From Amoebophrya sp. A120 (Eukaryota > Protista > Dinoflagellata): a stretch of DNA of 64,000 nucleotides. Of this stretch, positions 1 to 39,561 are shown in pieces. The stretch covers positions 1,207,386 through 1,271,385 of the forward strand of contig CAJINV010000016.1 in the NCBI GenBank assembly GCA_905178155.1, given 5' to 3'. The translations under genes and the position numbers were made by a program. Below the pieces are notes generated by a model. It was not told the DNA's origin. It did no database searches and saw nothing but the letters and a program-made list of their open reading frames with translations. The first letter of the stretch is position 1, and every line of letters begins with the position of its first letter.

Positions 1-783
1 GATGAAAGAAAAACCAGACGCGCCGATATGAAAAGTAAATATCATGAAAGGAAGCTGCTGCGTCGGAAGAATTAACGAACTGAAATCTTCACTGCGGATT
101 CTGATTCAATATTGACATGATTCGAATGCGCAGCAGCAGGTGCTGAACTTTGCGAGGAAGAGGAACAATATGTACTTCTGCTGATCCATGATTTTACTGG
201 CCCACTTCCACGCCTACTCTGAAGACAGACTTAGACTTTGTTTCATCGGCATTATAATCACAGAAGCAAGAGGACTATACCGAATTTTTCTTTGTCCACT
301 CGCTGAATGTGAATGATAAAACAAGCAACAGACTCGTCCACTATTACTTATTTTCATCGATGGAGCTTTTGAGTATCGAAGCTTCACTCGATGAGTGCCG
401 AAGTTGTTGTTCAACACCTTCCTTCGTGGTTCCTTCGTTGTTGCAAGATCGTGCAACCTCCTGTTACGTAATGAGGAACCGACCCTGCTGGTGGCCCCTT
501 GGTTCACCACCAACGTAAGCATGTGCATTCATTCATTGTACTCAGCTGGATCTGGAATACGCTAATGCACAATTCTACCTTGTACTTGGACAGGAAATTG
601 GAAAAAGTAAACGTAAAGATTTACGTTTGCAGTTGCTACTTGATCGTGCTTGTGCTCGTTGTAACCTCAACAAAAGAAATACAAAAATAGAAAACATAGT
701 GTGCGCAGCCGGAACAAGGTCTTCTTCTCTTCTGTTATTCGATTTTCTTGAAATTGTCCTCTTGCAGGTGGAAGATCAACAAG

Positions 784-3700: not shown

Positions 3701-3822
3701 TCCTGGCCGCGAAGCGGGGGGTCTTGCCGGAATCATACCGGCTCAAAGGGTGGTATAGGATTTTGCTGGGGATCGTGTTTGGTATTTGCAGCATTCTGTG
3801 CGTCTACGCTGCATTTCTGTGA
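784..3822 (+). CDS. NRAMP/MntH-family divalent metal transporter; 8 exons, all 7 introns are TIR introners
   Basis: Removing each element plus one 5-bp DR gives one continuous frame: MSMSPINVLG...KILGPGIMVCLADTDGPCLVTAGESGSLYGYSL...AQELTVRL...LAANIGAVIMPWMLFYQQS...ARLDTVVG...VYAAFL*. The GPG..D.D.G, QE...RL and GA.IMPW motifs are typical of NRAMP. Confidence 0.92.
921..1183. mobile_element. Introner family A (263 bp)
   Basis: TIR TATCAAATGTAAAAGTGTCTGGGTCTGGAAG ... CTTCCAGACCCAGACATTTTTGCAGTTGATA; DR GATAA; removal restores GSDNYASQ. Confidence 0.95.
1236..1389. mobile_element. Introner family B (154 bp)
   Basis: TATGAAATGCAAAAGCATCGTACT ... AGTGCGATACTTTTGCACAGAATA; DR GCGGT; restores EVERFQC. 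Confidence 0.95.
1428..1685. mobile_element. Introner family A (258 bp)
   Basis: Family A TIRs; DR TGGGC; restores the conserved ILGPGIM. Confidence 0.95.
1933..2075. mobile_element. Introner family B (143 bp)
   Basis: Family B TIRs; DR TTACC; restores LVITCIAA; no GT-AG possible at the junction. Confidence 0.93.
2122..2383. mobile_element. Introner family A (262 bp; starts TAC)
   Basis: Family A TIRs; DR GCCCA; restores CIAQVGEL. Confidence 0.95.
2715..2977. mobile_element. Introner family A (263 bp)
   Basis: DR GATGA; restores REMTYARLD; closely similar to the reverse complement of 59032-59306. Confidence 0.95.
3061..3326. mobile_element. Introner family A (266 bp)
   Basis: DR GGGCG; restores AMGATLFK. 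Confidence 0.95.
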
Positions 3823-11405: not shown

Positions 11406-11572
11406 TTAAAGCTGTAAATCTTCGATTTCCAAGATATATGGAATATTTGTTTTTTCCACGACAAAAACATCAAGAATTTTCTATTACATAAATTTCGAAT
11501 CATTGGAATCTTTATGATCCATCGAAGTCTGAATCTCAGGAAAAAGTTCAAATTGTGATGGAAAAAAGAGAA

Positions 11573-12382
11573 CATAATCGTCAGGCCACATAGTCGTCAG
11601 GGGCTGGCAACCCAGGATGGGCCGACGGTAGTGGTGATGTATGAAAAACTGCGATACGATGGTGATACAGACCGAAAGCGGACTAGCGTACGGCGCGAGT
11701 TGCAACAGCCCACTGGGCACACGGGCGGACCACTACTGCGGTGAGTGAAGTTATCCTGGAGGCGCGCACAGGTCGCGATGCAAAGTAGTGATAGTGCTGC
11801 CCTAAGCTCTTCGACAAAAAATTAAAACCAAAACCTCGGTCACAACAAGAAGTAAGCTTTCGTTCTCAGCAAGAATTTCAATTTCAACAAGCGTAAGACA
11901 GGCTCAAAAAGCACTGCAGCGTAAGAAAGGACCAAGAGGCGGACAACAGCAAAAAGCTCAAAAAAAGAAAAAACAAAAACAAAAACTTCCTTTTCGACTA
12001 CGTACAGCAAGACTTTCACTTCAAGTTTTCTCTTCACAAAAACAGTTTTTCGCAGCGACCGACTAGTTTTAGCTTCTTTTCAACAACCTTTTTAGTACTT
12101 TTTCAGAAACAACAGCTCCGACGTTGAGGCAGCTTTTACTTTTACAACAAGCAAGTAACCTTTGGACTTTCAAAAAAAAAAAAACTTCAACCTTTCTCTT
12201 TACTTCTTTTACAGTTTTGTTTATACAGCCTTAAGCTCTCGCTTCTAGCGACAGTTCCTTTTTCTAAGGCAGAGGCCAAAGCAGCTCTGCCAAGTTGTCC
12301 TTTTTCTTGAAATAGCGCTAACCATGTGAGAGGAAGCACAAATTTCCAAACGGTTCCACATGACCTTCATCAACAAACAAAC
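11573..12382 (+). mobile_element. SINE/non-LTR-like retroposon with an 11-bp TSD and (CAAA)n tail
   Basis: AAAAAAGAGAA at 11562-11572 and 12383-12393; ends CAACAAACAAAC; GC-rich ~230-nt head. Confidence 0.6.
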
Positions 12383-12554
12383 AAAAAAGAGAAGAGATTG
12401 ATTCTTCATTTTTTGAAATCTCATATCGATATTGAATAGTTGATGTAATGTCAGTTATAGTGATGTTTTGGGAAACCGTTGCCAATTGTTGGTCCATAAA
12501 TATGATTCTTCGAATTTTTTTTTCAATGAAGTCCCAATTGAAATGATCGAAAAT

Positions 12555-14339: not shown

Positions 14340-15082
14340 AATGGAAGGCTTAACGAGGATTCATTGTGAGAATGAATGATCTCTGAGAAAGCCACTGCAA
14401 GAGTGTTTGCGCTTAATATCTTACACTACACTTCCTAAAGGCGAGAATCATCTATAAACTTCATCGCATAGCAGCGAATGGAAGGGTTTGCGATCACAAC
14501 CCTGCATTTCTCAAGTGGAGTCGCACAGCCGGTTTTGGGTCACGCTCGAGAACTCGAATCTCGTCTCGGAGCTCTTTTTTTCACCAAACGCTAACGCATG
14601 GGCATGCATAGAACGCAAAAAGAAAAATCAGTAATTCCAAACAAGGCCGAATATTTACTTCGGCAACGGCGGCAATTCATTTTCTTTTCTAGGTTTTCGT
14701 TTTTAGCCCTTAATCGGTGCCTCCAGCCGTGGCAGCTCGGGAAAACTTATCAAGACAAAAAATCAACAGTGGCATTGACGACGAGGAAAAGTATTTCGGA
14801 CTGCGTCAGTTTGTACAAAGGCTGCAAACGCGGCGTGGTGTCGTGACAATCCCCTGAGACAGCTTCTACGATCTACTACCTCGGATCATGTCAATGTCGT
14901 GTCAGACAGTTTCGTTTCTCGTCAGCTATGAAAATCTACTTTGTGTTCGGTGTGTTGATAAAAGTTGATAAACGTAAAAATTGCAACATCTGCAGCATCT
15001 GCTCTTATTTGCTCCTCTCGCTTTATTCCGCATAACCAGCACCCGTTCTGCATTCATTTTTTCGAACATCTCGAAAATCGTT

Positions 15083-17310
15083 TTAGGTCTTCGACTATCA
15101 AATGCAAAAGTGTCTGGGTCTGGAAGGATGTAACTTGTCGTGATGCGCATTTCAGAACACACAAAAATCTCTGATGCATAGGCAGCAAAAGCTGCTCACT
15201 TTCTGTCACCAAAGTGGGGGATTTGTCATGGGGATTCGGCATTGCGGAAGCTTCTCGAAACCTGTGATGCTAGAGCTTCCATGCCAGACCTTCTGTGTCA
15301 TGCAGAAACAGCATGACTCTTCCAGACCCAGACATTTTTACATTTGATATCGACACGATCGCTCCTGACCCAAACGTGAAGTTGAACGGTTCGTCCTCCT
15401 CTTCACTCGTGTCATCCGGTTCGGGCGGCTTTGGCTGTAGTAAATTCCCCGTTGTCCCTCCTCCCGCTACTTCCCTACTTCTCCTCCCCACTTTATTCGC
15501 CCGGGCGGAGCTCTTATCCAAGAGAAAGAGTGCGTTAGTGTAGGTTTTTTAGGAAAACAGCATCACAAGTTTGTCTGCTATGAGAGAAAAAACTTGTCAT
15601 GCGCAGAGAGAACGGGAAAACACGTAGGAAGCGAGCCAACCATGCATGTGGAGCATGACAAGGGTATACTGTTTTGCATTTTCTGCATCACAGACTTACA
15701 CTTACACCGTTTTTTTCTTGCATAGCTGTTCCGCGCGGAGCCCTGTGACCGCGCCGTGTGATAACTCCTCGTCGTGGAGGGCGTGGGTGGGGCGGGTATC
15801 GCAAGAAAAAAGTGTTACAGTTTTCACACATTGTGTTGCAGGCCAAGCAAGACAGACAAGCTCTGCCATGCCGGATATGCATAGGAGCCTCGTTTTTTTC
15901 CGTAGGATTTCTGCATTACAAGTTTTCTCTCTCATGGAGAGAAATTTGTGTTGCTGAATTGACTACAACTGTGTGACTGTATACACTTTTTATTTCGTGG
16001 GATAGCGAGAAGGGAGCTGCCAGTGGTGGAGATGGATGCTGATTTTGTCAAAGAAGAAGAACTAGAGGCACCGCCGGTGCTGCTAGAAGATCCGCCGCCG
16101 CCAGAGACGAGATGGAGGGGTAATTGCAGTTTTGGTGGTATCACGGAATTCGGTTTTGAACTCGCTGATGGTGTGTCGCTATCCAGTGGAAAATAAGTAT
16201 CGACGCGCTGGTACGTATTGTAATCTAAACCTGGATGCCTACAGGAGATGTCGAATCTGCATGACAAATTCCCTTGTTCTATTATTTGCAAAAATTTGTC
16301 GTGCGATTTCTACGTAGCACGAACAGGATACTTTTGCAATGGATAGCCGCCTTCGCTGCTGTTTGCATCTGCCTGGAGCTGGTCCGTTTCTGCACGTTCA
16401 AGGGGCTCGAGGAGACAACGGTACAACACATGATACCTGTTGTAGTTGTTTTGCAGAATCTAATATTTCTTTGTCACGCACACGCAGTCCTAACGTTTGA
16501 AACTCGTTTTGCAATGCGGAAGTTGCATTTGCAAGAATATCCTTGTGCATCGAGACCACAAAAAGAGCAAATCTTCATCAGTTTCATTATGTACCTCGTG
16601 CTAATGTTGTGCTCCCACTCGGTCACCGGTGATTCCCAGGTGCTGACCTTCGTGATTTCGTTGTAGTAGTACTCATGGCCGCCGTCCTCACTCTGGTACG
16701 GCCCCGAAAACCCGGCTATTGCTTCCAATGCTCGCTGGTGGACTCCTTGTAAGTGGACGTCGATAATGCGAGAGATTTCGTCTTTCGGAACGCCCGGGCC
16801 GGGGACCGAACGAACTTTCTTCACCATCTGGCAGGTTTTGTATCGATTATCACCATCTTCATCTTGTTTTGCATGATCATTGATCACCATCTTGTTTTGC
16901 ATGATTTGCACGTCAACTTTGACTTCTACAAATGGTTTTGAGAACAGCATGGCAATCAAAAATTTCAACATCTTAATCTCTATCGGAACAAATTGTACCT
17001 GTATCAGCTCCCGGTACGTCCTGTCCGTTGGGTGTGCCCAGCTGGACTGCTCCGTTGCGTAGTTGTAGAAGTATATTCTGCCTTCCGGGTCGGAAAATTC
17101 TGCCCAGTTGGGCGGCAGTGGTGCGATGTAGGCCTCCTGCATGATGCGGAGCAACGTGCCCTGGGTAAAGTCATCGTCTTGTTGGAGTGTTTCCTCGTCA
17201 CAGCCGAGGTACTGGACGAATTGAGCGAAATCTGGGTCGGACAAATCCGGGAGGGGTGCGCCCTGATCTTGGTTCTCGTTCTCATCCTCGTCGCTATCTT
17301 CGCTGGACAT
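15083..17310 (-). CDS. Tandem WW-domain protein with a CEP164-like N-terminal module
   Basis: APLPPNWAEFSDPEGRIYFYNYATEQSSWAHP and YYYNEITKVSTWESP; GT-AG introns 16828-16998 and 16437-16594 plus introners; 3' exon structure approximate. Confidence 0.75.
15096..15349. mobile_element. Introner family A (254 bp)
   Basis: DR TCGAC; same + orientation as 1428-1685 although the host gene is on -. Confidence 0.92.
15540..15985. mobile_element. Larger inverted-repeat element, probably intronic, in the WW gene; ends uncertain
   Basis: IR CAGCATCACAAGTTTGTCTGCTATGAGAGAAAAAACTTGTCATGC versus reverse-complement CAGCAACACAAATTTCTCTCCATGAGAGAGAAAACTTGTAATGC; no clean DR found. Confidence 0.5.
16180..16345. 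mobile_element. Degenerate introner family B (166 bp)
   Basis: TATCCAGTGGAAAAT ... TTTTGCAATGGATA; DR GTCGC/GCCGC. Confidence 0.75.
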
Positions 17311-17938
17311 TGTGAGCTGCTATCGAGGCTACCTCTCTTTTTTGCTAGTAACCCCGACCGGTAGTTCCACCTTACGACTCGGTGCAGCTACACGTCGCGT
17401 GCCTTCTACTCCCTATTGCCGTATGGCATGCGAGCAAGTTAAAGTTTGTTGCAGAAGAAGCACGACCCCATGGAGGCGTTGCTGTAACGAGCAGAGGGAG
17501 GGACGCAAGCTAGAAATGGTTCTTCTGGAAGATGAACATGACATGTCGGGTAGAAACAAAGCCTGGACATCAACTCGTCTCTCGGTAAGTCTGAAGAGAA
17601 GCGGGCCAGACTCGGGCAGAAAAAAAGAACCAGACACCACGCAATGCTGACCGAAGCGGAAGATTTGAAAACGGATATAATCCAAGAGAAACAAAATTTT
17701 CTTCAACTCAAGAACTTGTTCAGTCGCTTCACATTATGATGCACTCGCTCAGATAGTAGTGAACTTCAGAGACAATGACAAAGATGAATGAAAAACTTAA
17801 GTACAACTCGAGGGCGAGGGGGAAAGTAGAACTACGCGAACAGCTGAACACGAAGAATTCATGCCGCTGACTACGTAAACTCAAGCGCCAGCTTTCCTTC
17901 AAACAAGCCGAAGAGTTGCTCAGACAAAAATCATTCTG

Positions 17939-20900
17939 TCATATCTTTCGATTTTTTATTTGCAACTGAAAGGCGAGCGTTTGTTGCCCAGCGGCCTGTG
18001 GTGCTGTCGGCATGTTTAAACTGATTTCCTGAAAACCGAGTTTCAAAATCTCTTCCCGCATGGACCTGCACTTTTGAAAGAACATTTCTACGTCGTTTGG
18101 AAACCCGCAGTCAGTAACATACTCTAGAATCAAGAGGATCTTTTTCACTTTTGGTTGCAACGGGGAAGACACATCCTCACTTTCTTGCGCGTAATCCACG
18201 AGAGAAGAGAGAAACGTCGTGGAAGATGGCGAGGAGTCTAGTGGTTGGCTCACTACTAAGTCGGAAAACCTGAAAAAGTCGAGCCGTAGAGTCAGCGTTT
18301 CGATTGCGGCAAGTGTTAACTGCGGGAATATTGTTGGCACCAAGCTCGAGAAGAAGTGGGCTGCGGCCGTGATTGTAGTTGGTGTGTCTGATTGGTGTTG
18401 TTCTATGCAAGGTCGGTCTATCGCGGTGGACTCCTCTTCAACTCTGCAGAAAGCGAATGGCAAAATGACAGCTTCTCGATTTTTCTCCTCCGTAGTACTC
18501 AAAGCTGCTCCGGCCACTACAACTCCCAGCTCCCCGTAGTTATCCGCCTTCCTCCCGCTGCTGTCGGCGATAGCCTTCGCGTACCGGTGGAGAGAGGGTT
18601 CGAGGATGAGCTCCTTTACCTCGGAGCAGGTGGCGCGATAGGGTTGTAAGAGAGCGGTTGTACTATCAACATCCACATGACTACTTTTCTGCGCAGCTGT
18701 CAACGTGTGTCTCTCCGTCCCGAACCGGAGCTCGAGACAAGGGTTTTTCGAAACGGTGGCCGTTTCAGTTTCTGCAACTTCTACCGTTGCTCCTCGTGGC
18801 GACGTGATTTGCAAGTCAATTTTCAAGTATCCATCGTCGCTGTCGTCTTCTTTGTTTTGTAGTAGTGTCTCGTCCACCGCTCCAGCACCAGGAGGCATTT
18901 TTGCGGTCGTTGAGGGAGCTGCCTCCGAATCTGGTGTCACGGTCAACGCAGTGTCTGTGTCGCTCCCCGCTGTTCTTTGAAACCTCAGATTGATCTCGTC
19001 CACCTGCACGTCGCTCAGCTGCTTGTACCCAAATTCCCCGCACCAAAACTCGCAATCTTTCGTCTTATCCGCGAGTTCGAACCCTTTCGCCTCCATCTTC
19101 TTCACCGTCTCCCCACACGTCGCCCCGTTTTCGTACATGGCTTGGCGGTTTTCGCACAGCACTTCCAGCTCGATCTCTTTAACCTTCCTCCGTAGCGTTT
19201 CACCACTCGCAGACTCGATTATTTTCAAATCCAGCCCCTGCGCGTCGATTTTGATCAGTTTGACTTCGTCGAATTTCCGGAACCAGTCGGACAGCACGGT
19301 TTCTAAGGTCACACAGGGCACCTGGCGGACTTCTTTCAAACCGGAGGCAACGCGCTCACGGAGTTTCTGCATGTCGTAGTTGGTGTGGCGGACTTTGTAG
19401 ACCGGATTCCCGTCTATATCGTACTCCACATCGTAGCTTTTGTTGTGGTCCTGCTCTTTGTCCACGTGGTCCGCTTTTGGTTCCACTTTATTTCTTTCAG
19501 CTGATGCTGTACTACCTCCAGCTGGCGGTAGAACACTACTCGCCCCGTCCAACTCCATCACGTGGAAGTTCAAATACCCAGGAGCAGTTGTACTACTACT
19601 ATCACACGGCCCCACGGCGAAGGGTAGCGCAACGCCGCGTTTGTGCATGACGCCCGCGTTTTTTTCGTTCGGCGCCTCCCGGAATCTGGAAAGCAAGTAG
19701 CTCCACTTGTCTAACAACGGTTCGAAACTGGCGATGAAAAGCGTTTCGTCCGCTGCCTCCACGAACTTCTTGTCTTCGTCCATCAATATCCTGTGCAAAA
19801 GTATCGCACTCGTACTAAATGCAGATATGCATGACAAATCTAACCCTCTTCTACCTGAAATTGCATGAGAGATTGCATTTTTGTTCTTGGGGAAATTTGT
19901 AATGCAATTCATACTAGTACGATACTTTTACTTTTGCAGTGCATAATCAACAGATTGCGACTATTCGACCCGATTTCCAGCATCAGTTGTTTCTTTTTCG
20001 TTTTTATGCATTGCAAAAGTGTCTGGGTCTGGAAGGTTGGAACTTGTGATGCTAGCTCTCCATAACTAGGAAATCTGTAGTACTGCATAGCCAACAAAAG
20101 TCGCAGCCTCTTTTATACACGCAAAAACGCAGTTTCTCATGCGAATTTCCTATGAGAAAGCGCTCTGAAAAGTTGTCATGCTGTGTTGCATTCGAAACGG
20201 TTTCCATCATCCACATTTTGGCATCACAAGTTTCCAGACCCAGACATAATTTTTGCAATCCATAGTTTTTGGTAGCACCGCTTTCTCCGCAACCGACTCG
20301 GATCTCCCATTCACAATTATCACAGGAAAAAGTGTTAACGTTAATGGGATTTGTGATGCAGTAACGCATCAGAAAAGGTACCCAAATTTGTATTGCGTAG
20401 CATGCATGGAAGGCAAAATTTGTAATGCATGACTGCCATTTGTGAAAACCGTTAACGCTAATACTTTTTTGTTTGATAACAATCTGTTCCGCCTGCTCGT
20501 ACATGTAGTCCACGGACTCCCTCGGTGCGGTATCCTGTGCAAAAGTATCGCACTCGTAGTAATTGCACTTGCAGTCATGCATTACAAATCTCGTTCCCAA
20601 CGCAAATCAGCATGACAAATTCCATTAGTCATGCTGAGCGAATTTGTATTGCAATTACTACTAGTACGATACTTTTGCAGTTCATATGGAGAGAAGGATA
20701 TCAAATCGTACCCCCCGTGGATCTTGTTCTTCACCGGGAGAAAGCGCAACGTCGGCGGCAAAGCTCTCGTGTCTATCGTGTCCATTTTCGACTGCGCTTG
20801 CAGCTCCTTCCGCGTTTCCGCATCCCAGTACGGGTTGTCATGGGTAACGACGGACGCTGCTTGACCTTTCAGACTGTCGGGAAGTTATGCACTGCAAAAG

Positions 20901-21669
20901 TATCGCACTCGTAGTAATTGCAGTCATGCATTACAAACCCAACACAACTTTCTACCCGAAATAGCATGACAAATTGCATTTTTGAACTTGAGAAAATTTG
21001 TAATGCATTTATACGAGTACGATACTTTTGCAATGCATAGAAGTTCGTGGTAGGCGAAACCGGGCATGACGCGGGTAAAGTTCCGGCGGTTTACGAAGGA
21101 ATTGATGTAGTGGAAGTTGAGAACGGGGAAGTCTTTCACCAGGAGGGTCGTTTTCGTAGTTTGTCTTTCTGCTGCGTTTTCTATTTCTGCTGCGGTGTCC
21201 TCTTTTGCAGTTGTCGTGGTCCCCGTGTCTTTTGTCGACGAAAAGAAGATGTTTTTCGTGCCCGGGTATCCTGCGCAAAAGTATCGCACTCGTAGTAATT
21301 GCATTTATGCATGACAAAACTCTTTCTTAAGCTGTATCCGCATGACGAATCATGACAAATTCCATTTGTCATGCTGAGCCAATTTGTAATGCAATAGCAA
21401 CACTACGATTTCGATACTTTTGCAATTCATACCGGGAGCGGTTTCCAATCGAAGTGTGCTGTCGGGCGGGTCGTTGCGGAGGAGCCCGCGGCTAGTAATT
21501 CGGGAACGAGAATAAAGAATTGTAGCAAGAAAGACGAGGACATCTTCGCGCCGATCAACGGCCGAGAAACCACAGCGGAGGCCGACATAAAGGACGCGGC
21601 GCAACGAACGAACATCTTGGCCGGCTTAATTTCGTTCTTGCAGTTATAGTAGGTTCGCCCGGCGGCCAT
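17939..21669 (-). CDS. FkbM-like SAM-dependent methyltransferase-domain protein; 6 introner introns
   Basis: Reconstructed LMLEIGSNSRN...IASFEPL...VALPFAVG...VPCVTLETVL...VKLIKIDAQGLDLKIIES, matching the FkbM pattern; alternative start near 21543 gives a signal-peptide-like N-terminus. Confidence 0.78.
19787..19945. mobile_element. Introner family B (159 bp)
   Basis: DR ATCAA; restores RNLLMDED. Confidence 0.93.
20005..20264. mobile_element. Introner family A (260 bp)
   Basis: DR GTTTT; restores VLPKTKKK. Confidence 0.92.
20318..20478. mobile_element. Introner family C (161 bp)
   Basis: TATCACAGGAAAAAGTGTTAACGTT TIR; DR ACAAT; second copy at 62259. Confidence 0.9.
20531..20686. mobile_element. 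Introner family B (156 bp), diverged DR
   Basis: DR TGCGG/TGGAG; removing element+5 nt still restores SFSPPRES. Confidence 0.88.
20886..21039. mobile_element. Introner family B (154 bp)
   Basis: DR GAAGT; restores YHELPDSL. Confidence 0.93.
21267..21431. mobile_element. Introner family B (165 bp)
   Basis: DR CCGGG; restores KPLPGTKN. Confidence 0.93.
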
Positions 21670-22563
21670 GCACAGCAAAACTTTATTTACGAGAAAAAAA
21701 TTATAAGGTCACTCCGTTTTATTTTTGTTTTTCTCGATACGCATGCCCATGCGGTAATGCCGCCAGTGTCAAGTACAAGTTCCACGACCTGCGCAAATAC
21801 GAGGCGGACAGAGAACTAGCCAATGAAGATGGAACAGTTCCAGCAAGCAGTGAGACCTTCACCGTCCTGGCAGTGATGGAGTTGTTTGAAGCTTGGAAAC
21901 ATCACACTTCTTGTGTATTTTGTACATCATCAATGTTCAGTTCAATAGCAAGGAGTGATCTTACCTGGGACACAAATCCTGCGTAGCATACTCTGAATCT
22001 TCTTCTTCTGCATAGTTCATTGTTAGTGTGCTTCGACGAAACTTGAATTGTACAGGTCCAATCATACTATCAATTCGAAAAGAAAAAGATAAATTATTGC
22101 ACGAAACATTTTTAATACTTCGGCTACTATTACAACCTGGTGCCGATGTGGCTGCGCAGTTTCGCCTTGCGAAGAGATGAAGACTACGCAAACAAGTCGA
22201 AACTACTACGAGATTTTCTTTCACAGTTTCTGTCTGGAAGGAACTTTTGACTCAAAGCTATTTCTATCGAAGCAAATAGTTTTTGTTTCTTGTTCCGGGT
22301 CTGATTATCTGCTAGAAAAAGAAACTGGAGCTGCAAATACGATGCTAATCTTAATTTCTGTGACGATACGACCTTTCCAAGTGAAGGCGTTTCTACTGCT
22401 TGAGTATCAATATTGATTTTTGTACCTGGATTCAAATTTTTACGTGCGAGTAGAGATACGTGTCGCTACAGCTGCTAGAGCTCATGTTTATCTTCCTTTT
22501 TCTTCATCAACCGAGTTCCTGCCAGGAACCCTCTCCAAAATCCTATCCCCCCGACCGCGTCAG

Positions 22564-25500
22564 CTACTCGATCGCGAACGGCCTGCTGCTTAGTTCCATC
22601 GTTAATTCCTCATCTTCCGTGCTCTATCCTGTGCAGAAGTATCGCACTCGTACTAATTGCATTTATGGATTACAAATCTAGTTCCTAAGGCATATCCGCA
22701 TTACAAATTGCATTTGTAATCATGCTGATCCAATTTGTATTGCAATTCATACTAGTACGTTGCTTTTGCAATTCATATGCTCACGTAAACGACGAATTCC
22801 CCGCATTTTCCCGGATCGTAGGTGCAGGGGAGGATGGTGTAAAACCCTATCAAAATGAAAAATCCCCCCGCCCCATACTCAAACTAGAGATTTGTGATCG
22901 TGCAGATTTGTGGCCACAAATCAGCTTTGTCAAGCTAGAAGGGAAAAGATGCGGACTGTAGTGCTGTTTGGCGTGGGAACGCCTTGCATCTTCAGCATGA
23001 CAGGGGGCAGCTGGAAGTCGGAAACAGCGTGACAAATTGCCTGCAAACGAGGCCAAAGCTGCGTCTCTTGGCCTTCTAGCATTGCAAGTCGATTTGTGTA
23101 CTCAAATACAGCATCACAAATTTCGTTTTCGATATGGGGAGGGGGGATTTTTCCTTTCGATAAACCCCGCGTCTAGGGGTACGTTCAGCGCGATCTCGTG
23201 GGAGGCGGAGAAGGTGGTTTCGTAGACCAAAATGTCCCGGCTGATCACGACCTGCTTGTGCTGATCGTATACTAGTTTCAGTAAATAAAACCCGAGCATG
23301 CAACCCACCGGGTCCTTCACGATTTTCTGCCGCCAGGATTTCTCGCACCTGGCGAGCGTGATCTTCGCGTTCTTCGTCCTCTGTGGGACTTTCAGGAACA
23401 GCTGGGGATTCCTGCCCCACGTCGCGGTCTTCTGGGGCTCATACGGTGGGTAGTAGATGTGGCAACCGCCGGCGGAATCGGGGGTCCATTCGGAATATCA
23501 AATGTAAAAATGTCTGGGTCTGGAAGAATGTAACTTGTGACGCTGTTTTTGGACTCCAAAAAAATTTGTATTGCATGACCAGCAAGACGGGTACAGTTTG
23601 TGCTGCACGAACAGGGCATTTCTCATGCGGGTGGTGCATCAGGAAGGGTTCTAAAAACCCGTGATGCTAGGTCATGCATTACAGGCGTCATGTGTCATGA
23701 GAAACATGCATGACAAACTTGGCAATCTTCCAGACCCAGACATTTTTGCAATCCATACGGAACCTGTTGTATTGGTGGTATTCATTTACATTTTTGCAAG
23801 GGAGGTATCCTCGGTTCTGCTTCATGCTGGGGGTGGGAACGCCTACGCACACGCAGGGCAAGACAAAAAGAACAATAAAACCACGACTCTCGGTCTCGGC
23901 GGCATGATCTTCATCTTCATCTGTATCAAGATTAGCAGAAAACAAAAGACATCTCTTTATACAGATTAACGGGTGCTGTGAGTCAGGTAGCCTGGCGTGC
24001 TTGTAGATTTCCTTATCCGAATACACCGTCAGCATGCTGTTTCCGATGATCCCCTCCTCACTCAAGCTGGGCACAACCAACAGTGGCCCCTGGACTGGTG
24101 TCGTTGCGCACAAAACCGCACTTCTGTCCTCGACATAGGGGCATTCCTTTACCCAGTCGTTCGGGAGGATTTGCAGTTTTCCTGATAGGAATTTCGTGTA
24201 TCCGATTTTCTTGTCATGCGACAACATGAAGAAAGTGTGAAGGTGCGGAATTTATTATAATGAGCATTTTGCATGACAAAGACAAAGAAAATAAATCATA
24301 TGCATATCGTCGTATACTTTTCAAGAACTTGTTGTCCAATTCGTTCATTGCCTTCGAATTTGCCGACTCGTCCGGTAACCTGCCCTTCTTTACCCGCTGC
24401 AATGTGGTATCCGGCTGACTCGCGGGGACTAATCTGCACACCGTCGCGCCGATTTCCCCCACAGGTTTTTTCCTCCCGACTATTCTCTCTATCACCACCT
24501 TCACCGTCGCTGGTTTCTTGTACCCAAGCACCAACTGCGGATTTTTCCCCCACGCTGGGTTATCCACCACCACCGTCTGCATCGGCCCCCCGGCTGCCGC
24601 TGCCGCGGCACTACTACTTGTCGCGCCCCCACCGCCGCCGGCCGCGGCTGAGGTTTCCCCGGCCTTCCCAGCCGCTGCGGTCGGACTAGTTCCGCCCTCC
24701 TCCACCGGGACTTCTATCTTTTTCGACCTTTTCCCCCCGGAATTTTGGTTCGTGAATTCTAACGGGAATTGGTACTTGCACAATTTTGCGCACTTCTCTA
24801 TCGACACCTCACTGTCGGCGAAAATCCGCAAGCAGAACAACTTCCCGGTTTCTGGCTTCGTGGTTGCTTGGAACGGAACCAGCATGAACTGGGAGCAGGA
24901 GAGGGACTGCGGGTCGATCGTCGCTTCGAAGTTCACCTGAGCGTTGTTGATGTAGCTCGTCCCGACCGCGCAGAGTTCCTCATCGGGAAATTCCCAGAGG
25001 ATTGGCTGTCCTTTCGCCTTGTACATGACTAAGGAGATCGGCTCCTGCTCGGCGATCGCGTTTCCGCCCGTGGCCATCAACGTTGTGTCCTGGAGGAGAG
25101 AAACGGAGATGGTCGTTGGCTTGTTGATCGTGAGCTTGTACTGCGGATTCGAGCAGAATTCGGGATCCGCGGGGCCAGAACCCCTGGCGTCTTCGAAGTT
25201 ACCGAGGACCGCGTATTGATCTGTGTGAAGTTGTCGTTGAGGGAAATTGAAAATTGACGTAGAATTACCAAAAATGCACAGCAGCCAGTGCTCGAAAACG
25301 ATGACCATAACGAATATGTGCTGCTATTTCTTCGTGAATGGATCCAGGATCCTCAGGTCAGACTCAGGATCGTTCGAGTTCCACCTGCATGTGAGAAAGA
25401 GTAGAAAGTGCAAAAATAAAAAATCGAAAACAAAGTACGGTATTCCTGCTTGAACAGCCGGCAGATAGAAATCATCCCCCCGTCGAACAAATTGACTAAC

Positions 25501-28500
25501 TCCTTGAAGTGGATCCAGAACGTTCCATCATCCGCTTTGTTGTGCGCTCCTAGCTATGAATTGCAAAAATGTCTGGGTCTGGAAGATTGCAACTTGTCAT
25601 GGTAAATCTGAATCATGCAAAAATCTGTGTTGCACAAAAGCTGTACACTTTTGACCAAGTTGGAAGGGAGTTTCTCATGCAGGATAGGCATGGCAGAGAC
25701 CTCGCAGAGTCTGTCATGCTATGTCCAGCATTCTAGACCTCATGGGTCATGGAAAATCTGCATGACAAGTCTACACTTTTCCAGACCCAGACATTTTTAC
25801 ATTTGATACTAGCTTGTCCCGCAACTCCGTTTTTTTCCCAAACGGAATCGCGCCCTGCCACTTTCTATGCATTGCAAATATGGCTGGGTCTGGAAGATTC
25901 TTACATTTGTCATGCATGTCTGACATGACTCGAGAATCTGGGATGCATGGGGACGAAAAGGCTCTCTTATCTGTCACGCAAAAACGTTGTTTCTCATGCG
26001 GAATACGCAACACATAGCAGCTCAAAAATGTGTCATGCTTGGCTGCGTACTGCAGTCCAGCTATTATCCACTTTTAGCATGATTACAAGTTTCCAGGCCC
26101 AGACATATTTGCAATGCATACTTCCCGCTCGCACCGTAGGGATTTCTCAGGCGGATCAGCTGAAATCCCTGTTGCTCCACCATATCCAAAATCCCGTACG
26201 GGCAGCCCGGGCAGAGGCCGAAAGTGTTCCCCTTCTCCTTGCAGTAGATAGACACTAAAGATCCGGTGAAAAACTTCTCCTGCAGTTTCGCGAAATCCAG
26301 CTTCGCGCCCGGGTCGGTTTGGCGCTCCATAACACCGCCAGACATTTGGACGAGGGCGGCTTCGTAAGCTGGTTGTTTGGATGATCATGTTGGGTACGGA
26401 AGAGGAAGAAGTGAAGGTCGTGGTGCTGATGCCAAATTGAAATCGTACTACAAAACAAGCGTTCATGCAAATTTTCTACGTGGAGTAATCTACAATAACA
26501 TAGGAAGATAAGTACCCGTCATTCCATTTGCATCGAAATAGTTCACCATCGCCTCGTAGCTGGTGTGCATTTTCGCAAAGGCCTTCTCCAGATACACGGC
26601 CCAGAGTTCAGACGGCGGCGCCCCATTCGTTTCTAAATCCGAGGGGATGAACGAGTCCAAGGCTATTGACTTCCACTCGAACCCGTAAAACAGCGACAAA
26701 ACCAGCAATCCGCTCTGCTTCCAGTGGGAGTTTAAATCGTTGGAAAATATCCTGTATCCTGTGTAAAAGTATCGCACTCGTATAGCAATCACGCATTACA
26801 AATCTTTTTCTTAAGGTAAACCCGCATCACAAATTTTTTTATTTCTCATGCTGAGAAAATTTGTATAATGCATTTATACGAGTAGGAGTACGATACTTTT
26901 GCCGTGCATATCCTGCCGAGCAAGTCCGGTCTGGTAGAAATCACCGCAATCGCCGCTTTCAGCCAATTCGACTGCAGCGAGTGTGCTGGTGCGTCGCTGC
27001 ACGGCTTCTTGTCGGGGAAGATGTTGACTGGGGACTCTTTCTGCAGTATCTGCGGTGACCGGGTGAAACTGTCAATTTCACCGGATTTTAGGCTGGCCTC
27101 GCAGGTGTACAGAGAGCTGACCGCCGGGGGGAAGCGGGGGTCCTCGAAGGGCTTGCCGGTGGAAACGGATTTCTCGAGTATCCTCTGGAGTTCGGGAACG
27201 GTGGGTTCTGGGATGCCCTCGGCTGTGGAGTGGTTTGTGAAGATCATCATGCGGGTTTTTTATTGCAATATGTTCGTCTGCATGCCGTTCTTCTACTTGT
27301 TTTCGTTTTTGAGTGAGCTGAACGTGCACAACAAATATATCGTCAGATTACCTATGCTGGAGGTACCTACATGAATGAAAGCAAGAAAGCATAATTTATT
27401 TGAGAGTACCTGGATTCGGGTATCTAACTGTGCTTCCAACTTTTTCTTGCCTCTTTTTGTCGACCTCTTTCTTTTATGCATAGCAAAATATTATCGCACT
27501 CGTATAAATGCATTACAAATTTCCTCAGCATGAGAAAGAAACTTTGTAATGCTGATTTGCCTTCTTAACAGAAAGATTTGTAATGCATGACTGCAATACG
27601 AGTACGATACTTTTGCACAGGATATCTTTGCGGCTTTTCCGCGTTGAATCGACTGCATCTTTGTTGCCGCGGCGTCGCCCTTATGCTCTGCAAAAGTATC
27701 GTGCTCGTGTTGCAGTCATGCATTACAAATTTTTTTTTCAAGGTAAATCCGCATGGCAAATTTTATTTCTCATGCTGAGGAAATTTGTAATGCATTTATA
27801 CGAGTACTACGATACTTTTGCAGTTCATAGCCCTTCGCACCCAGCCCTGCCGCCCAGGCGGCGAGCGCTTCCGGTGACTCGTCGGAACTCGGAATGGCTT
27901 CCGCTTGGGCCTCTGCCGCTTGCTCGGCTGCGGCGGCCTAAATTTGTCATGTGGAATAATTGCATGATGAAAATGATATTGCAGTAGAACTAGAAGATCG
28001 AATTGTTGTTGCATCCATTATGCGCGTGGCAGGTGCACCATGAGTGTCCACGCAGTCAAGTAGGGTGCACTAAGTTTAGTTAGTTGTAATATCACCTACT
28101 TTAATACTCGCAAGCATTTTGCGCATGACAGAGGTCGTCTGTCTTGCATGTTTTGCAACACATTGCGTATTAATAAAAACAAATAATACATCTGCCAACT
28201 GTTTCCTCAATTCCGCCACTTCCTTTTTCGCTTGTTTCGCCCGCATCCGTGACTGCAGCGCCGTCGCCGCTTGATCTTATCCTGTGCAAAAGTATCGTAC
28301 TCGTGTCGTACGAATTGCAAATATGCATGACAAATATTTTCCCTAGGGCAAAACAGCATTACAAGTTTCACTTTCCTTCTTGCCAAAATTTGTCATGCAA
28401 TTTATACTACTAGTACGATGCTTTTGCAATGCATAGATCTCCCCTCTCCCCCATTTCTGCGGTCCACGCAGCTAGGGATTCTATCCTGAGTAAAAACGTA

Positions 28501-30295
28501 CCCACGCCAGAGTTGTAATGCAAATCTGCATGCTGAAAATGTTTCTCATGCGGAGCTCCATGAGAAGCATTTTCTAGTCGTGTTTTGCAATTTGTCATGC
28601 TCCAATCAGCATGGTATGCTAGATCTGTGATGCTGCTGAGCTAGCTGAAACAGCACTATGCTACGAATCCAAATTTGTCATGCAAAACAGCCAAAACTTG
28701 TGGATTTGTCTAGCCGATTCCCCATCTTGACTCTGGTGTGGGTACGTTTTTACTCAGGATAGATTCTGGTGAATCGCCATCCTCCTCTGCTTTTTCCTCT
28801 TCCTTCTCCGCCGCAACTAGCTGCGCCCGGAGCGCGTCCACCTCCTTCTTTGCCATCTTGGCGCGCTGTCGCGCCTGCATTTTCGCGGCAGCGGCATCTC
28901 CCGCGGCACCGAGCTCGGCGGTCCATTTTGCGAGCTCTTCGGGGGATTCGGGGTCCACCTCGACAGCTTTTACTGCTTCAGCGACGGCAGTTTCCTCTTT
29001 CGTCTCGGCTTGCGTCAGCTGCTTTTTCAGCTCTTCGACCTCTTTGCGGGCCTGTGGTAGGGTGTGAAATTCAGAGTTTTTGTTTTTGGTATAGTACAAC
29101 ACAGGGTTACGTATTAACGTTATGCAACATGACAACAAAGAATCTCGCTGCATGATGATGATTCGCAATACCTGCTTTGCCCTTTGCCTAGCCTGCATTT
29201 TTGTCGCAGCAGCGTCACCCTTGGCGCCAAGCTCTGCTGTCCACTTTGCCAGCTCTTCAGGTGATTCGCCGTCCCCTCCGTCGGCGCTAGCGCTGCCAGC
29301 GGCCGCTGCTTCAGCCTGTGAAGTGATGCGTTTAAACAGTCTCTGGTGTCACGATCAAGATGAGCATGCTCATGATTCCAATTCCAATTTCAGCTAAAGC
29401 CCAGTATAAAATTTGCAACAAACTACATTCACCACGTCTACGTCACATGATGATGATAAGTACCTCCGCAATCTTTGCTCTTATTTCCGCCACCTCCTTC
29501 TTTGCCTGTTTCGCCCGCATCTTCGCTTGCATTTTCGTGGCTGCTGCGTCACCCTTATCCCCCAGTTCGGCGGTCCATTTTGCGAGTTCCTCGGGGCTGT
29601 CTGGATCGACCGCGGCCGCTGCATCCGTGACGGCCTTGTCTACGGCCGTGGTTTCTTCTGCCTGGGCGTCTGCAAGCTTCTTGCGCAGCTCGTCGACTTC
29701 TTTCTTGGCCTGATAATTGATGACGTGTGAATGGGAGTGGTGCACAACACACAAGAATACTAGGTTCGCGTTTCTTCAAAATCTCAATGATCCCGAGGAC
29801 GTACACATTTCACACGACCCATGCATGTTTGTAAAGTGTTGTGTTGATGCAAATGAAACAATACCTGTTTTGCCCTCTGTCTGGCCTGCATCTTCGTTGC
29901 AGCAGAGTTGCCTTTTTCGCCGAGACCCTCAGTCCATTTTGCCAGTTCCTCTGGTGATTCACCGTCACCGGCGGCTGAGGAGCCCTCCGCGGCATCGGCT
30001 GCTACCATGGCCGTGTTCTCAGCCTGATAGTGCAGATAAGTTTCTGTTCCACTCATGCAAGAAAAGCTTCACAAAGTTCCCAATGTTCCATGACCATGGA
30101 AAACACCATCATCCAACATCAACAAAAAAATATTCGCAGTACATCTGCCAGCTTTTTCCTCAATTCATCCACTTCCTTCTTGGCCTGTTTTGCGCGCATG
30201 CGGGATTGCAGGGCCGTCGCAGCGGCATCTCCCTTCTCCCCGAGTTCGGCCGACCAGGCCGCGAGCTCCTCGGGAGATTCTCCCGGCTCGGCCAT
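22564..30295 (-). CDS. Calpain-like protein: 7 N-terminal IQ-like repeats, probably inactive CysPc domain, 3 calpain domain-III (C2-like) repeats
   Basis: Repeats SPEELAKWTAELGDKGDAAATKMQARQRAKQAKKEV; FEDPRFPP, ELWAVYLEKAFAKMHTSYEAM, LIRLRNPYG, DDGTFWIHF; three NPQ motifs and GFYTILPCTYDPGKCGEF; 10 introners and many GT-AG introns. Confidence 0.85.
22625..22777. mobile_element. Introner family B (153 bp)
   Basis: DR TGCTC; restores VYVSTEDE. Confidence 0.92.
22848..23162. mobile_element. Introner family E (315 bp)
   Basis: TIR TATCAAAATGAAAAATCCCCCCGCCCCATA; DR AACCC; restores the conserved DAGFYTILPCTY. Confidence 0.9.
23496..23757. mobile_element. Introner family A (262 bp)
   Basis: DR CGGAA; restores SEWTPDSAGGC; opposite orientation to its host gene compared with 921-1183. 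Confidence 0.93.
25555..25808. mobile_element. Introner family A (254 bp)
   Basis: DR CTAGC; restores RDKLGAHN. Confidence 0.93.
25866..26120. mobile_element. Introner family A (255 bp)
   Basis: DR CTTTC/CTTCC; restores NPYGASGKWQG. Confidence 0.92.
26755..26910. mobile_element. Introner family B (156 bp)
   Basis: DR TCCTG; restores LLGRIFSN. Confidence 0.93.
27475..27624. mobile_element. Introner family B (150 bp)
   Basis: DR TCTTT; restores AAKKEVD. Confidence 0.92.
27682..27829. mobile_element. Introner family B (148 bp)
   Basis: DR GCCCT; restores GAKGDAAATKMQ, matching the uninterrupted repeats. Confidence 0.94.
28278..28435. mobile_element. Introner family B (158 bp)
   Basis: DR GATCT; restores ERGDQAAT. 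Confidence 0.93.
28482..28761. mobile_element. Introner family D (280 bp), near-perfect 31-bp TIR
   Basis: TATCCTGAGTAAAAACGTACCCACGCCAGAG with 1 mismatch; DR GATTC; restores SPESLAAW. Confidence 0.93.
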
Positions 30296-31379
30296 GATTG
30301 AGGAGTTCACTACTTCTCAAAAGCCGTGCTTCTATGGTAGTGTTTTTGGAAGATGAACTAGGAACGGTATCGGATATCTACGAAACCAGATATGTGGTTG
30401 AAAAACATACACTTCTGAAAGTTACGAATGGTATTGGGATGCTGTGCGAAGCGATAAATTTTCGAAGCCGCTCATCGTACGTCTTCCGAGAGCACCAGGA
30501 GTGCTCAAGCTCATCTCTCTTCGCCTCACGTTCGAACGAATGATCTACTTACTAACTTATTCATTGGACAATGCGAAGCTAGTACTCCTCGAGTCTGTTC
30601 AACAAGAGAGCGGTGGATAAATGCGGCTCATACAACACCACATACGAGAAAGGATCTGCATAAAAACGTGGAAAACGAATTACTCGAACAAAAGCAGCAT
30701 TCTACCACCTGGTGTAATCGAGCAGCATGTCGTCGTCGTGGTTGATGGTTGCGCCACAGCCAGGAGCTCATGTGTTTCGTTTAGTCAACATGCTTTGTTA
30801 TTGTTTCTTTGGAGGTGACGGCAAACATGTTGTAGATACATTTTTTTCGTCTTCTGCAGACGGCATGGGCAAGACCGATGAGTTCACCAGCACAAAATGA
30901 CTTTTCGTCACGGATGATTCTCTACAGAAGTGCGAATCGATAGAGACAGCATGCGAAGAGGTCATGCTGGAGGAAAGGAGATGGATCTTCAGAAATTTCG
31001 TCGCCGCTTGGAGCTGGCGCCCCCGGCGTTCTCGTTTTCGTTGCGCGGTTTGCTGCCACCGGCCGAGCGAAACCCGCCACCTCGCTGCGCCTTCGTTCCG
31101 GAAGCTCTGTCGCAAGCGGGATCAGTGGTTCCCCGTTCCTGCGCTATTCGCAGCGCTTCGGTTAGGAGTATGCAGCGCAAGGTCGTGTCGGGATCTGAAA
31201 GAGCAAAGGAAGTAGACCTGTATTTGTATTTCTTGTTGGGAGCATACCATAGGCATAGAGATGCAAACCCTCGAAAATTTATATTGCATGATGACAGGAG
31301 TAGGAGACCATCGAGCAGCAACATTGTTTGTGGTGCCAGAATCATGCCGCGCGGCGCACTTGAGGCGCGCCGCATACTT

Positions 31380-36709: not shown

Positions 36710-39561
36710 CTACTCCTTCGTCCTCCTCACATAATCCGTTTTCCCGAACTTCGCTATATTTTCCTGGTGTTTCCGCTCCGCCCGCTTTTCAAATTTCGCC
36801 CTTTCATCCGGAAACTCGTCCAGGAGTTTTTCTATCTCGGAAAAATCGACGATGCTGAGCTCCACAAACGTCAGAGCTTTCACACTCGTGGTTCGTTTTT
36901 TCCCGTAGATCTCCGGGTAGAGATTGGCTAAAACCGCCGACATCTCCCCTATGACAGACCCTTGTTTCACCGTCGCGATTTTATTTTGCAGATTTTCATC
37001 TCTTCCCAGATACACACCCAGCTCCCCCGACCTGACGAAGTACACGTATCTGTGCTTGCGGCTCGCTGCGAACGCGTTGTAGAGTTGTGTGTTGCGGAAA
37101 GGAGAAGCGGAATGTGGTTTATTCCTATTCGCTGCATCTACTGTCTTAGCGCCATGATGCTGATTATGTTCCTCTTCCGCGTGGTCCTCGGTATCCCCCT
37201 CGTGGAACAGGAAATCACCTGGTTGGAAACAAACAAAATTCTCCTGCCTATCGAACAAAACCAGCAGTTTCCGGACGAAATCCGGATGGGAATCTGGGAA
37301 GACGTTTTCCAGGTACTGCAGCGTTTCGGTTTGCGACAGCCGAACGGTTGCCATCTCGGCCAAGGCGCGCATGCGGAGGGAATGGGAAGAGTTACCTAAT
37401 GAGGATTTTATCGTGTGAATACACATCATGAGCGATAAACGAAGAAGAAGATCAAGATTATCATGGTGGTCATACCAGCGTAAGACATAACTTGAAGAAC
37501 AAGCAGCAGCTGCAACACAAGTTCTACCTTCCTCATGGTGCAGAATATCTTCCGCTTCCACCTTCAACAACTGCGCTCCCTGCAACCCCGCTGTTACCGT
37601 TGCGGTTCTTTCCGTTTTATTCAAAAGCAGCGACATCTCGCCGACGACTGCCCCTTCCTGCAAATTCGTAATCAGCACCCCCTGCTTCTGGATCTCTAAT
37701 TGCCCCTTCTGGATCACGTAGAGATATGCAATGCAAAAGCATCGTACTCGTATGAATGCATTACAAATTTCCTCAGGATGACAAATAAAATTTGTAATGC
37801 GGATTCGACTTAATGTAATGCACGATTGCAATACGAATACGATACTTTTGCACAGCATAAGAGACTTTCATCAACGATTTTGTCCCCCTCATGGAACAGT
37901 AGTTCGTTCGGCTTCAGGTTCAAATACCGTTTCCGACTTCTCGCGGATTTCAGGATTTCATTGTCCAGAATCCGGTCCGACTTCGCGATTTGGATCTGCG
38001 TTTCCTGCTCTGCGATTTTCTCGCTCGAATACCGTCGGACGATGGAATGCCGTTCCCGCAGAACCGCTTGCTTCACCTGCTCGAGGTCGTATCTCTTCTC
38101 AACATTCGGGTTCAGCATGTTCTGGAGAATTTTCTTCAAATGATCAGCCTGTTTCGACTCAGAACTGGAGGAGGACGAACTTGAAGAACTACTTCTCCCG
38201 AAATCCTTTATCTTCTTCCATTTCACCGCCGGAAACTGGAAATTTTCCCTCTCCTTCAGCGCCCTCTTCTCATCGATCGCGTAGGGGAATTGGCCCGTGG
38301 TTAGGACGAAGAGAACCACGCCCAAAGCGTAGACGTCGGATTTCTTGCTGTAGACTCCGGCGTGAATGCACTCCGGAGCGAGGTACTGGATGGTGCCGAC
38401 CAGGTCTTTCTTTTCCTGGTAGAACTGGGTGGAGTTGTTATCCGACGGGTGAAGAAGCCCAAGAGATGAATTTTGTGCACCGTTCTCCTCCTCCAATTCC
38501 AACTCCACCAAAGCCCCGAAGTCGCAGAGTCGCAACTTCTCCTCCGCCGCGTTCTCGAAGAGAAAATTTTCTAATTTGATATCCCGGTGCACGATGTTGT
38601 TGCTGTGCAAATGCTCCACGGCGGCCAGCATTTGGAGAAACAGTTTCAAAATCTTCGAATAACTTGGCAGTCTCCGGTCGTTTGTCGTGTCGTGCGCGTG
38701 CTGTTCCAGGTAGTTCAACAACCACTCGCAGAGGTCTGACCCGTAGCAAAGCGTCATCACGGCGATCTGCTTCTTGTCGGATGAGTCGGTGGGTGCTTTT
38801 CCCTTATTTGAGGCGCCCGGGGGTGGACCGCCGTTTATTCCGTCTATTGACCCGGTAGTTGTACTTGTCGTCGATGAGTCAAACTGTTCTATCAGTTCCA
38901 CCACGTTCTCATGTCTCCCCAATCGCGACCAGAGTTTGAAGCTGTCCAAGTCCTCCGCATCCCCCACCTTTACCGCCCGTTTCGCCTTGCTCTGGCGGTG
39001 CTGACAGCGCATCACCGACCCGAACGCGCCTTCCCCGAGGTTGTGGATGTTTGTGATTTTTCCGCGTTGGATTTCGTATTTTTTGTAAAAATCGGCGATG
39101 GATTGCTTTTGCTGCGGGGAGACAGATCTGCGACTGCGGGAAGACACCCTTCGACCTGCTTGTGCTTGTTCACACAGGCAGAGGTCTTGCTCGAGCAGAG
39201 CGGATGGAATGATGTTGAGTCTTCGAAGAAGAGCAGAAATGGTGCGGCCGGACGTAGTAGAGGCATCGGCAGGTGGAAGGTACACGCTCCATCTTTCAGC
39301 GGGACGGGATGCGTGTGATGAAGATGTAGATGCTGTGGCCGCGGCGCTGCATTGCGAAGGTGTTCGACCGAAATGGAAATCGTGTGTCGGCCTGCCGCTG
39401 TCTTCTTGCAAACTATCATCGTCGTTCTCCTGCTGTTCTCGGATGTGCCAGGGACCAGAGTTGTTGTACTTCGGGGTTGCGCAGGTGCACAACGCCCGAG
39501 CAGCAGACGAACCGAGCATCCTTTTTGAGTACACGACACTCGCGGTGTTTTGTCGCACCAA
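36710..39561 (-). CDS. CAMK/CDPK-like Ser/Thr kinase followed by two cyclic-nucleotide-binding domains; start uncertain
   Basis: LGEGAFGSV, AVK, HRDIKLENFLF, DFG, APE; LFHEGD..LYVIQKGQL..GEMSLL..RTATV and LFHEGD..VRSGEL..GEMSAV..RTTSV. Confidence 0.87.
37725..37859. mobile_element. Introner family B (135 bp)
   Basis: DR AGAGA; restores DESLYVIQKG. Confidence 0.93.

Follow-up and report, generated by a model that had tools for sequence, protein, structure and literature searches.

How can genes of the dinoflagellate Amoebophrya sp. A120 carry transposon-like elements in their exons, lying in either direction, and still encode a continuous protein? This is the question raised by a 64-kb stretch of contig CAJINV010000016.1 (hereafter the window, meaning the whole stretch of 64,000 nucleotides (nt) that was analysed), in which repeat searches and three end finders located 42 elements of 109-315 nt, all inside coding frames and 35 of them with stop codons in all three frames. 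An earlier note on this DNA had proposed that their removal is orientation-independent, the signal being the symmetric terminal inverted repeat (TIR), as an RNA hairpin or as DNA ends, and not a polar set of donor, branch and acceptor sites. The present analysis makes it likely that an element and one copy of its target site duplication (TSD) are removed together from the precursor messenger RNA (pre-mRNA) by a strand-aware machine that reads the TIR ends.

The window elements start with TAT and end with ATA (with two variants), have TIRs of about 15-30 nt and lie within 5-bp TSDs that are perfect around 32 of the 42 copies and imperfect around 10 (15515, 15797, 16180, 20531, 25866, 44260, 45522, 57211, 60197 and 63806). 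Since the end finder returned no element from shuffled windows (0 in 3/3), the set is not a product of chance. TIR positions 11-13 are A in 160-170 of 179 ends, the finder favouring such ends, and the TIR core reads AAAA at the 5' end and TTTT at the 3' end in about 160-170 of 179; because the finder demands complementary ends, end symmetry is inflated. The ends agree with the motif published for introners of strain A120, a TIR that begins TAT followed by seven variable bases and at least three A, in elements near 240 nt long (Farhat et al. 2021, PMC7789003, cited here, like the other papers below, for the parts of its text that were available), and for this reason the window elements are probably those introner elements. 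Two families depart from the motif, K (46688-46923) and M (57439-57656), with TAT...ATA ends and perfect 5-bp duplications without the published A tract; taking out 46688 fuses two frames into one of 2148 amino acids (aa). Finder matches at 9620 and 9925 were discarded as AT-rich chance matches. Window positions 3900-15000 form 11 kb without any element, which, together with the placement of all copies in coding frames, suggests exon targeting or loss elsewhere.

Orientation was called from element interiors only, after 30 nt of TIR had been stripped at each end. The host genes concerned, and the copies of family A, its subfamily A' and the reference element of family B, are as follows (window coordinates; for elements, the strand is that on which the copy reads; X1 is an RNA-like run described below).
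700..3822, plus strand: Nramp-family metal transporter gene, 7 elements
14689..17695 (extent of X1 record 2), minus strand: WW-domain protein gene, 2 GT-AG introns and 4 elements
17942..21708, minus strand: FkbM methyltransferase-domain protein gene, 6 elements
21894..30301, minus strand: calpain-like protein gene with N-terminal repeats, at least 4 GT-AG introns and 10 elements
921..1183, plus strand: family A, TSD GATAA, in the plus-strand Nramp gene
1428..1685, plus strand: family A, TSD TGGGC, in the Nramp gene and also in its orthologue L113 (94%)
2122..2383, plus strand: family A, in the Nramp gene, begins TAC
2715..2977, plus strand: reference element of family A, TSD GATGA, in the Nramp gene
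15096..15349, plus strand: family A, TSD TCGAC, in the minus-strand WW gene, opposite to 1428 relative to the host
23496..23757, plus strand: family A, TSD CGGAA, in the minus-strand calpain-like gene
25555..25808, plus strand: family A, TSD CTAGC, in the calpain gene, inverted against 43949 (84%)
43949..44211, minus strand: family A, reversed on plus, in a minus-strand frame
45522..45718, minus strand: family A, shortened, reversed on plus, imperfect TSD
59032..59306, minus strand: family A, reversed on plus, 90.5% to inverted 2715
63418..63682, minus strand: family A, reversed on plus, 83.8% to inverted 921
3061..3326, plus strand: subfamily A', in the Nramp gene
20005..20264, plus strand: subfamily A', in the minus-strand FkbM-domain gene, opposite to 3061 relative to the host
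25866..26120, plus strand: subfamily A', in the calpain gene, imperfect TSD, inverted against 44260
44260..44523, minus strand: subfamily A', reversed on plus, imperfect TSD
1236..1389, plus strand: reference element of family B, in the Nramp gene, where 1933-2075 reads the same way

The interior of 15096 scored 288 against 1428 in the same direction and -36 inverted (87.2% identity), and that of 23496 scored 183 and 19 against 921 (77.6%) and 211 and 15 against 2715 (79.5%). The reverse held for 59032 against 2715 (6 same, 330 inverted) and for 63418 against 921 (8 and 248). The statement that 15096 and 23496 read on the plus strand exactly like 1428 and 921 was thus right as to direction, "exactly" being too strong for 78-87% identity, while their hosts do lie on the minus strand, as had been said (a WW-domain gene with GT-AG introns on that strand and a calpain-like gene with an orthologue in Amoebophrya sp. 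A25). The further statement that 59032 and 63418 are reversed, and hence sense-aligned like 2715, agrees with their inverted interiors; their hosts are long minus-strand frames with no Pfam match in the two exons scanned, the strand being taken from open reading frames only. Relative to the host, the window tally was 8:3 for family A, 2:2 for A' and 13:2 for B.

The analysis was extended with the TIR pattern to one related public assembly, which gave at least 152 loci, with long flanks for about half; all counts for this assembly are among the loci listed. These held at least 320 distinct elements (perfect duplications in 255/320), and host strand was called by a coding model trained on the window, 29 of 30 calls being correct in a leave-one-out check. 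Elements with their own host call (137/320) gave 20:22 for family A and 7:12 for B, and loci with one unanimous strand (200/320) gave 30:34 for A, 15:16 for B and 88:86 for all 174 classified copies. Subfamily A' stood at 13:7, and at 10:1 under a stricter threshold, and some bias in A' is possible. Host calls of neighbouring elements, for which orientation was not used, agreed in 65 of 67 pairs, same-family neighbours being in the same or inverted direction 20:21. Reading frames called separately on each side were in register in 20/20 and 12/12 classified cases, with four further cases having conflicting strands. One of the loci, L113, is an orthologue of the Nramp gene that shares element 1428 and carries family A in both orientations, adding two inverted copies (L113:427-689 and L113:774 onward) at sites that correspond to window positions 1777-1781 and about 1856-1860; exon differences between L113 and the window were silent in 5/5 cases. 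The first of these sites is empty in the window:
1777..1781, plus strand: empty target site with a single GTGTC, which L113 has twice, on both sides of an inverted family A copy

Copies that are present in L113 and absent from the window indicate recent mobility, and the balanced tallies, the frame register and L113 together show that orientation is close to neutral. The first duplicated base fell at codon position 3 in 74 of 137 host-called elements (insertion phases 74/34/29), in both orientations, against 16 of 42 in the window (16/11/15), an excess that may come from frame calling. A comparison of exact with off-by-one open frames in the window was prone to ties (24/42 strictly best) and was not used.

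Removal itself was followed in four runs aligned to window positions 12500-29500: X1 (RNA-like, a guess), X5 (DNA-like), X8 and X9. For 15096, which sits three codons before the stop of the WW gene, the frame alone does not require removal, so that only RNA can show it. Besides the copies above, the aligned genes hold:
16180..16345, minus strand: family B-like, in the WW gene, imperfect TSD
15515-15724 and 15797-16004: family E pair in the WW gene, mutually inverted, both with imperfect TSDs and both absent from X1 record 2
22625-22777: family B, in the calpain gene, absent from X1 record 4
22848-23162: single element in the calpain gene, absent from X1 record 4

The X1 contigs were spliced and the X5 contigs unspliced. 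Joints (15 listed, another 1488 beyond) were swamped by other copies, and piece coordinates were used instead. Exon lengths were predicted by removing each element with one duplication, along with six GT-AG introns whose positions came from homology or from the sequence, and all four gaps between X1 contig pieces equalled the prediction (721, 642, 220 and 64 nt). These gaps span ten elements, namely 15096, 23496 and 25555 of family A, one A', three B, both E and one single element; the removal of 15096 follows from the gap arithmetic of X1 record 2 and that of 23496 from the exact 220-nt gap, and the six GT-AG introns are gone from the same contigs. Four elements with imperfect TSDs are absent from X1, copies of this kind including 25866 and 16180. 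Between a GT-AG acceptor and 23496 lies a 6-nt exon (23758-23763) that consists, but for one base, of the target duplication, and in X1 record 4 both neighbours were removed exactly. At the protein level, the Nramp gene minus each element and one duplication gives a 492-aa frame that aligns with a related protein (P0003) at 41% identity over 410 aa, with 7 gap positions, across six junctions, and the element-free calpain-like product aligns across its junctions with the A25 orthologue P0001. Raw RNA reads of X8 and X9 aligned in 122 and 125 cases, 121 and 124 of them only partly and over element sequence only, and likely stem from another strain.

All 8 of the X5 pieces listed entered an element or crossed it, one spanning 16180 whole, so the DNA keeps its elements; the suggestion that DNA ends are the signal is not supported on this point. 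Programmed excision from DNA by a transposase-like enzyme using symmetric ends, as for the internal eliminated sequences of ciliates or prokaryotic excisons, would account for symmetric TIRs, random orientation and a scar-free product, yet it is scarcely credible beside these contigs (for the life stage sampled), beside two assemblies that keep the elements inside genes, and beside end variants that follow transcript polarity (below). The X5 contigs drop rare forms, and 1488 joints lie beyond those listed.

A more serious challenge to the RNA-like evidence is that the elements stay in messenger RNA (mRNA), the junctions being template switches of reverse transcriptase and the protein arising by ribosomal hopping from a codon in one duplication to its match in the other, or not at all. 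A hairpin with a short direct repeat is the anatomy of "falsitrons", which have 4-5 nt repeats and make up to 70% of complementary DNA reads (PMC8240250), and the RNA evidence here consists of assembled contigs, which such skipping could inflate. Hopping could further draw on the fact that a 5-nt duplication always contains one whole codon. We nevertheless regard this account as very improbable. In the 40 imperfect duplications of the window and the loci listed, 30 of 49 mismatches fall at third codon positions, and 13, mostly residue-changing, fall at positions 1-2 of the whole codon; although 19.6 would be expected there, so that the count is somewhat low (p = 0.035), it means that the codons need not match. 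The four elements with imperfect repeats are missing from X1 all the same, and template switching would leave unexplained the conserved proteins of genes that are under purifying selection with up to ten elements each. Along the TSD the mismatches are distributed 8, 10, 3, 8 and 7 in the transcript frame, with no clear pattern, so the cut cannot be mapped from DNA.

Where does the signal for removal from RNA lie? Because both orientations occur about equally, a polar signal in the element interior is excluded. No base preference was found at any TSD position and no target consensus, and the purine share around the site is 0.50-0.64 without a peak. A GT..AG placement was possible in 0 of the 40 window copies tested (GA..AG in 3) and, in the related assembly, in 8 of 137, where chance alone would give 8.5. 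The signal must lie within the terminal ~25 nt, neither in the interior nor in the target, and must work on either strand. The claim that no polar set is involved thus holds for the interior; a polar reader of the TIR ends stays compatible, and two-way removal cannot tell a hairpin from such a reader because inverting a TIR leaves its 5' word and its 3' word as they were.

In the transcript frame, the base distribution does not differ between 5' and 3' ends at 25 of 26 positions. The outermost base was changed 0 times at the 5' end and 8 times at the 3' end, and the third base 8 times against 2 (Fisher p = 0.001, or 0.005 when one doubtful case is included); an AAT end (L018:4083) was set aside as doubtful. 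A simple strand bias in mutation is no explanation, because the mutational leaning of one position is opposite to that of the other, and from a DNA process that is blind to strand one would not expect this polarity. It points to a strand-aware reader, as a lead and not a result, and the two ends appear to be treated differently.

It is possible, if only tentatively so, that this reader is a modified U2-type spliceosome recognising polar donor- and acceptor-like words inside the 25-nt TIR, where a branch-like A lies upstream of a U tract at -14 to -10. Either direction would work only because the TIR supplies both words, and the proposal would name the machine of the reading preferred here. The polar end variants and the AAAA/TTTT core suit it, as does the report of U2, U4, U6, an A120 U5 and most spliceosomal proteins, with U1 not detected (PMC7789003), and two-way spliceosomal introners are known (10.1101/2020.10.14.339549). 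The dinucleotide counts in the window run the other way, as do the exact processing of the 6-nt exon between the GT-AG acceptor and 23496 and the lack of a TSD base preference, a point of difference from the two-way introners already known, whose TSD supplies a splice dinucleotide.

The RNA hairpin of the earlier note did not gain from the sequence comparison. In the predicted fold, TIR positions 9-16 pair end to end in 166/179 and 167/179 on the two strands, with z = -6.3 for 15096 (transcript strand) and -3.4 for 1428, and G.U pairs are not above A.C on the transcript strand (102 vs 128 in one count, 160 vs 208 in another). A structure-guided, non-polar reaction, in which the stem would juxtapose the duplications and an endonuclease-ligase would join them, as proposed for euglenid nonconventional introns, is rather unlikely. 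The strong predicted folds are consistent with it, as are matches at positions 4-8, which are more frequent within elements than between them (3.05 vs 2.21; maximum of 500 shuffles 2.49), a value inflated by the finder and by families, and Euglena knock-ins need complementary terminal motifs (PMC12501133). Against this stand the missing G.U enrichment, the conservation of TAT and the A tract as sequence, the polarity of the variants and the Euglena code, itself asymmetric with N3 at the 5' side and N5-6 plus purine at the 3' side (PMC12501133).

The preferred reading, removal of element plus one duplication by a strand-aware reader of TIR ends, would run as follows. Non-autonomous transposon-like elements lie in exons, in either orientation and within 5-bp duplications, and stay in the DNA; in the pre-mRNA, a machine reading the TIR at both ends would excise the element and one duplication with it. 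The removal step would take place on RNA in the cell, with the TIR acting as a predicted stem, as sequence words or as both, and the reader would need a U right after the upstream duplication and tolerate a change of the last base. Since both directions of insertion leave a TIR with an identical pair of ends, almost every element that inserts into an exon would turn into an intron without a scar, and the size of the invasion would be accounted for. A spliceosome without U1 and an endonuclease-ligase acting on a stem are overlapping versions of this reading. Its strongest form, that a dedicated, spliceosome-independent RNA repair machine reads transposon ends with strand awareness (the U after the upstream duplication being invariant and the last base free) and returns the mRNA exactly to its state before insertion, whatever the target and the orientation, so that the superfamily does almost no harm in exons, seems doubtful.

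Several points weigh against the preferred reading, in addition to the falsitron anatomy discussed above. X1 is only guessed to be RNA (no run is recorded as RNA) and may derive from the culture used for the assembly; its contigs show presence, not level, and most removals rest on summed lengths, so that compensating errors inside a gap are formally possible. For orientation-independent removal, what stands is that both directions occur and are about equally tolerated; the RNA-like evidence for family A covers one direction (15096, 23496 and 25555), and only family E, with its weaker orientation call (interior score 66 vs -34), has both directions in RNA-like contigs. Family B is skewed in the window (13:2, p = 0.007), a skew that the related assembly lacks. 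The G.U and A.C counts give no sign of selection on RNA pairing, and the transcript-strand fold is the more stable one in 89/179. The end polarity was found post hoc, in 18 variants and with model-called host strands.

The remaining elements are:
19787-19945, 20531-20686, 20886-21039 and 21267-21431, minus strand: four family B copies in the FkbM-domain gene
20318-20478: family F, among these B elements, inverted against 62259-62425
26755..26910, minus strand: family B, in the calpain gene
27475-27624 and 27682-27829: adjacent family B pair in one gene (calpain), 84% alike and mutually inverted
28278-28435: family B, in the calpain gene
28482-28761: family J, in the calpain gene
37725..37859, plus strand: family B, in a minus-strand kinase gene, minority orientation
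46335-46443: family G
48285-48440: family B
51781-51932: family B, ends ATG in the transcript
57211-57367: family H
60197-60310: family G
62259-62425: family F
63806-63959: family H

Concerning the host genes, the nearest matches of the Nramp protein share 36-41% identity and come from metagenome or genome sources, one being named an Mn2+/Fe2+ NRAMP transporter. The calpain exon search gave a sole match among longer proteins, from Amoebophrya sp. A25 (53%), whose orthologue has PF00612 among its precomputed domains; the window protein carries many N-terminal repeats of the ESPEELAKW...KMQARQRAKQ type (28173-30301). The window's own annotated proteins did not turn up in the protein searches. 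Close to where plus-strand genes give way to minus-strand genes, arrays of degenerate 12-13-nt tandem repeats lie at 6270-6440, 7650-7825 and 8337-8560, of the TTTTAGAAG type on one side and of the complementary type on the other.

The result narrows how A120 introns leave without GT-AG and places new constraints on an already known system. With the ten imperfect duplications in the window, RNA reads that already exist could be used to locate the true cut, and the 6-nt exon would allow the order of removal to be tested. In pipelines that demand same-orientation similarity, as in the method of PMC12130899, every family would fall into two halves. Should the machine be found, a useful tool would be at hand in the form of a short cassette, spliced out without a scar wherever it is placed and whichever way it faces.

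The elements, their TIRs, the direct repeats and the hairpin model are already published, as is two-way intron creation by other introners. For A120, the available text of PMC7789003 describes direct repeats of 3-5 nt (given as 5 bp in the legend of Fig. S19), borders that are non-canonical and a predicted hairpin, with more than 60% of introns removed without GT-AG and without detectable U1. The window elements are alike in their TAT start, A run, direct repeats, non-canonical borders, repetition and absence from RNA-like contigs (10 elements); they differ in that the paper has variable splice positions, whereas the product here is the element plus one 5-bp copy wherever this could be checked. 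In the available text of that paper, "orientation" is used four times in the main text and three times in the supplement, of gene order every time. The literature searched, which did not extend to figures, the preprint supplement, Huff 2016 or the journal version of Roy 2023, holds no statement on element orientation in Amoebophrya, and the two-way behaviour in this genus is apparently new.

The elements also resemble MITEs (miniature transposable elements with inverted repeats) of DDE transposons with 5-bp duplications, being short, non-coding, TIR-bearing, randomly oriented and strain-specific in their insertions (L113). Ginger and Mu/Tn7-like elements have TGT...ACA ends, and those of Amoebophrya are TAT...ATA. 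An A120 TIR family with a Copia/Gypsy-like open reading frame, without Ginger termini, is described in PMC12130899.

Among introners, Polarella classes 2, 3, 6, 7, 8 and 10 and the Aureococcus TIR introners create introns either way (10.1101/2020.10.14.339549). The introners of Polarella glacialis and Aureococcus share with the present elements a DNA-transposon origin, a TSD and introns in either orientation (PMC9860276), but they carry or recruit GT/GC/GA and AG and so need particular TSDs, whereas no dinucleotide or TSD consensus was found here; their classes 6, 8 and 10 are orientation-biased, unlike the larger Amoebophrya sample. The earlier note had set two-way removal against the GT-AG introners of Micromonas or fungi; the contrast shown here is that no splice dinucleotide is recruited. 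Euglenid nonconventional introns likewise combine non-GT-AG borders, terminal inverted repeats and TSD-like repeats with a proposed MITE origin and coexistence with GT-AG introns, and circular excised RNA has been reported for them (PMC12501133, PMC11282704). They carry an N3-CDG...CHG-N5-6|R signature and require a purine at the acceptor exon start, whereas the Amoebophrya elements have TAT...ATA ends with an A tract, depart from that signature and show no purine preference. By analogy, the euglenid nonconventional intron is the closest functional counterpart of these elements, and the likeness is likely convergent, between unrelated lineages.

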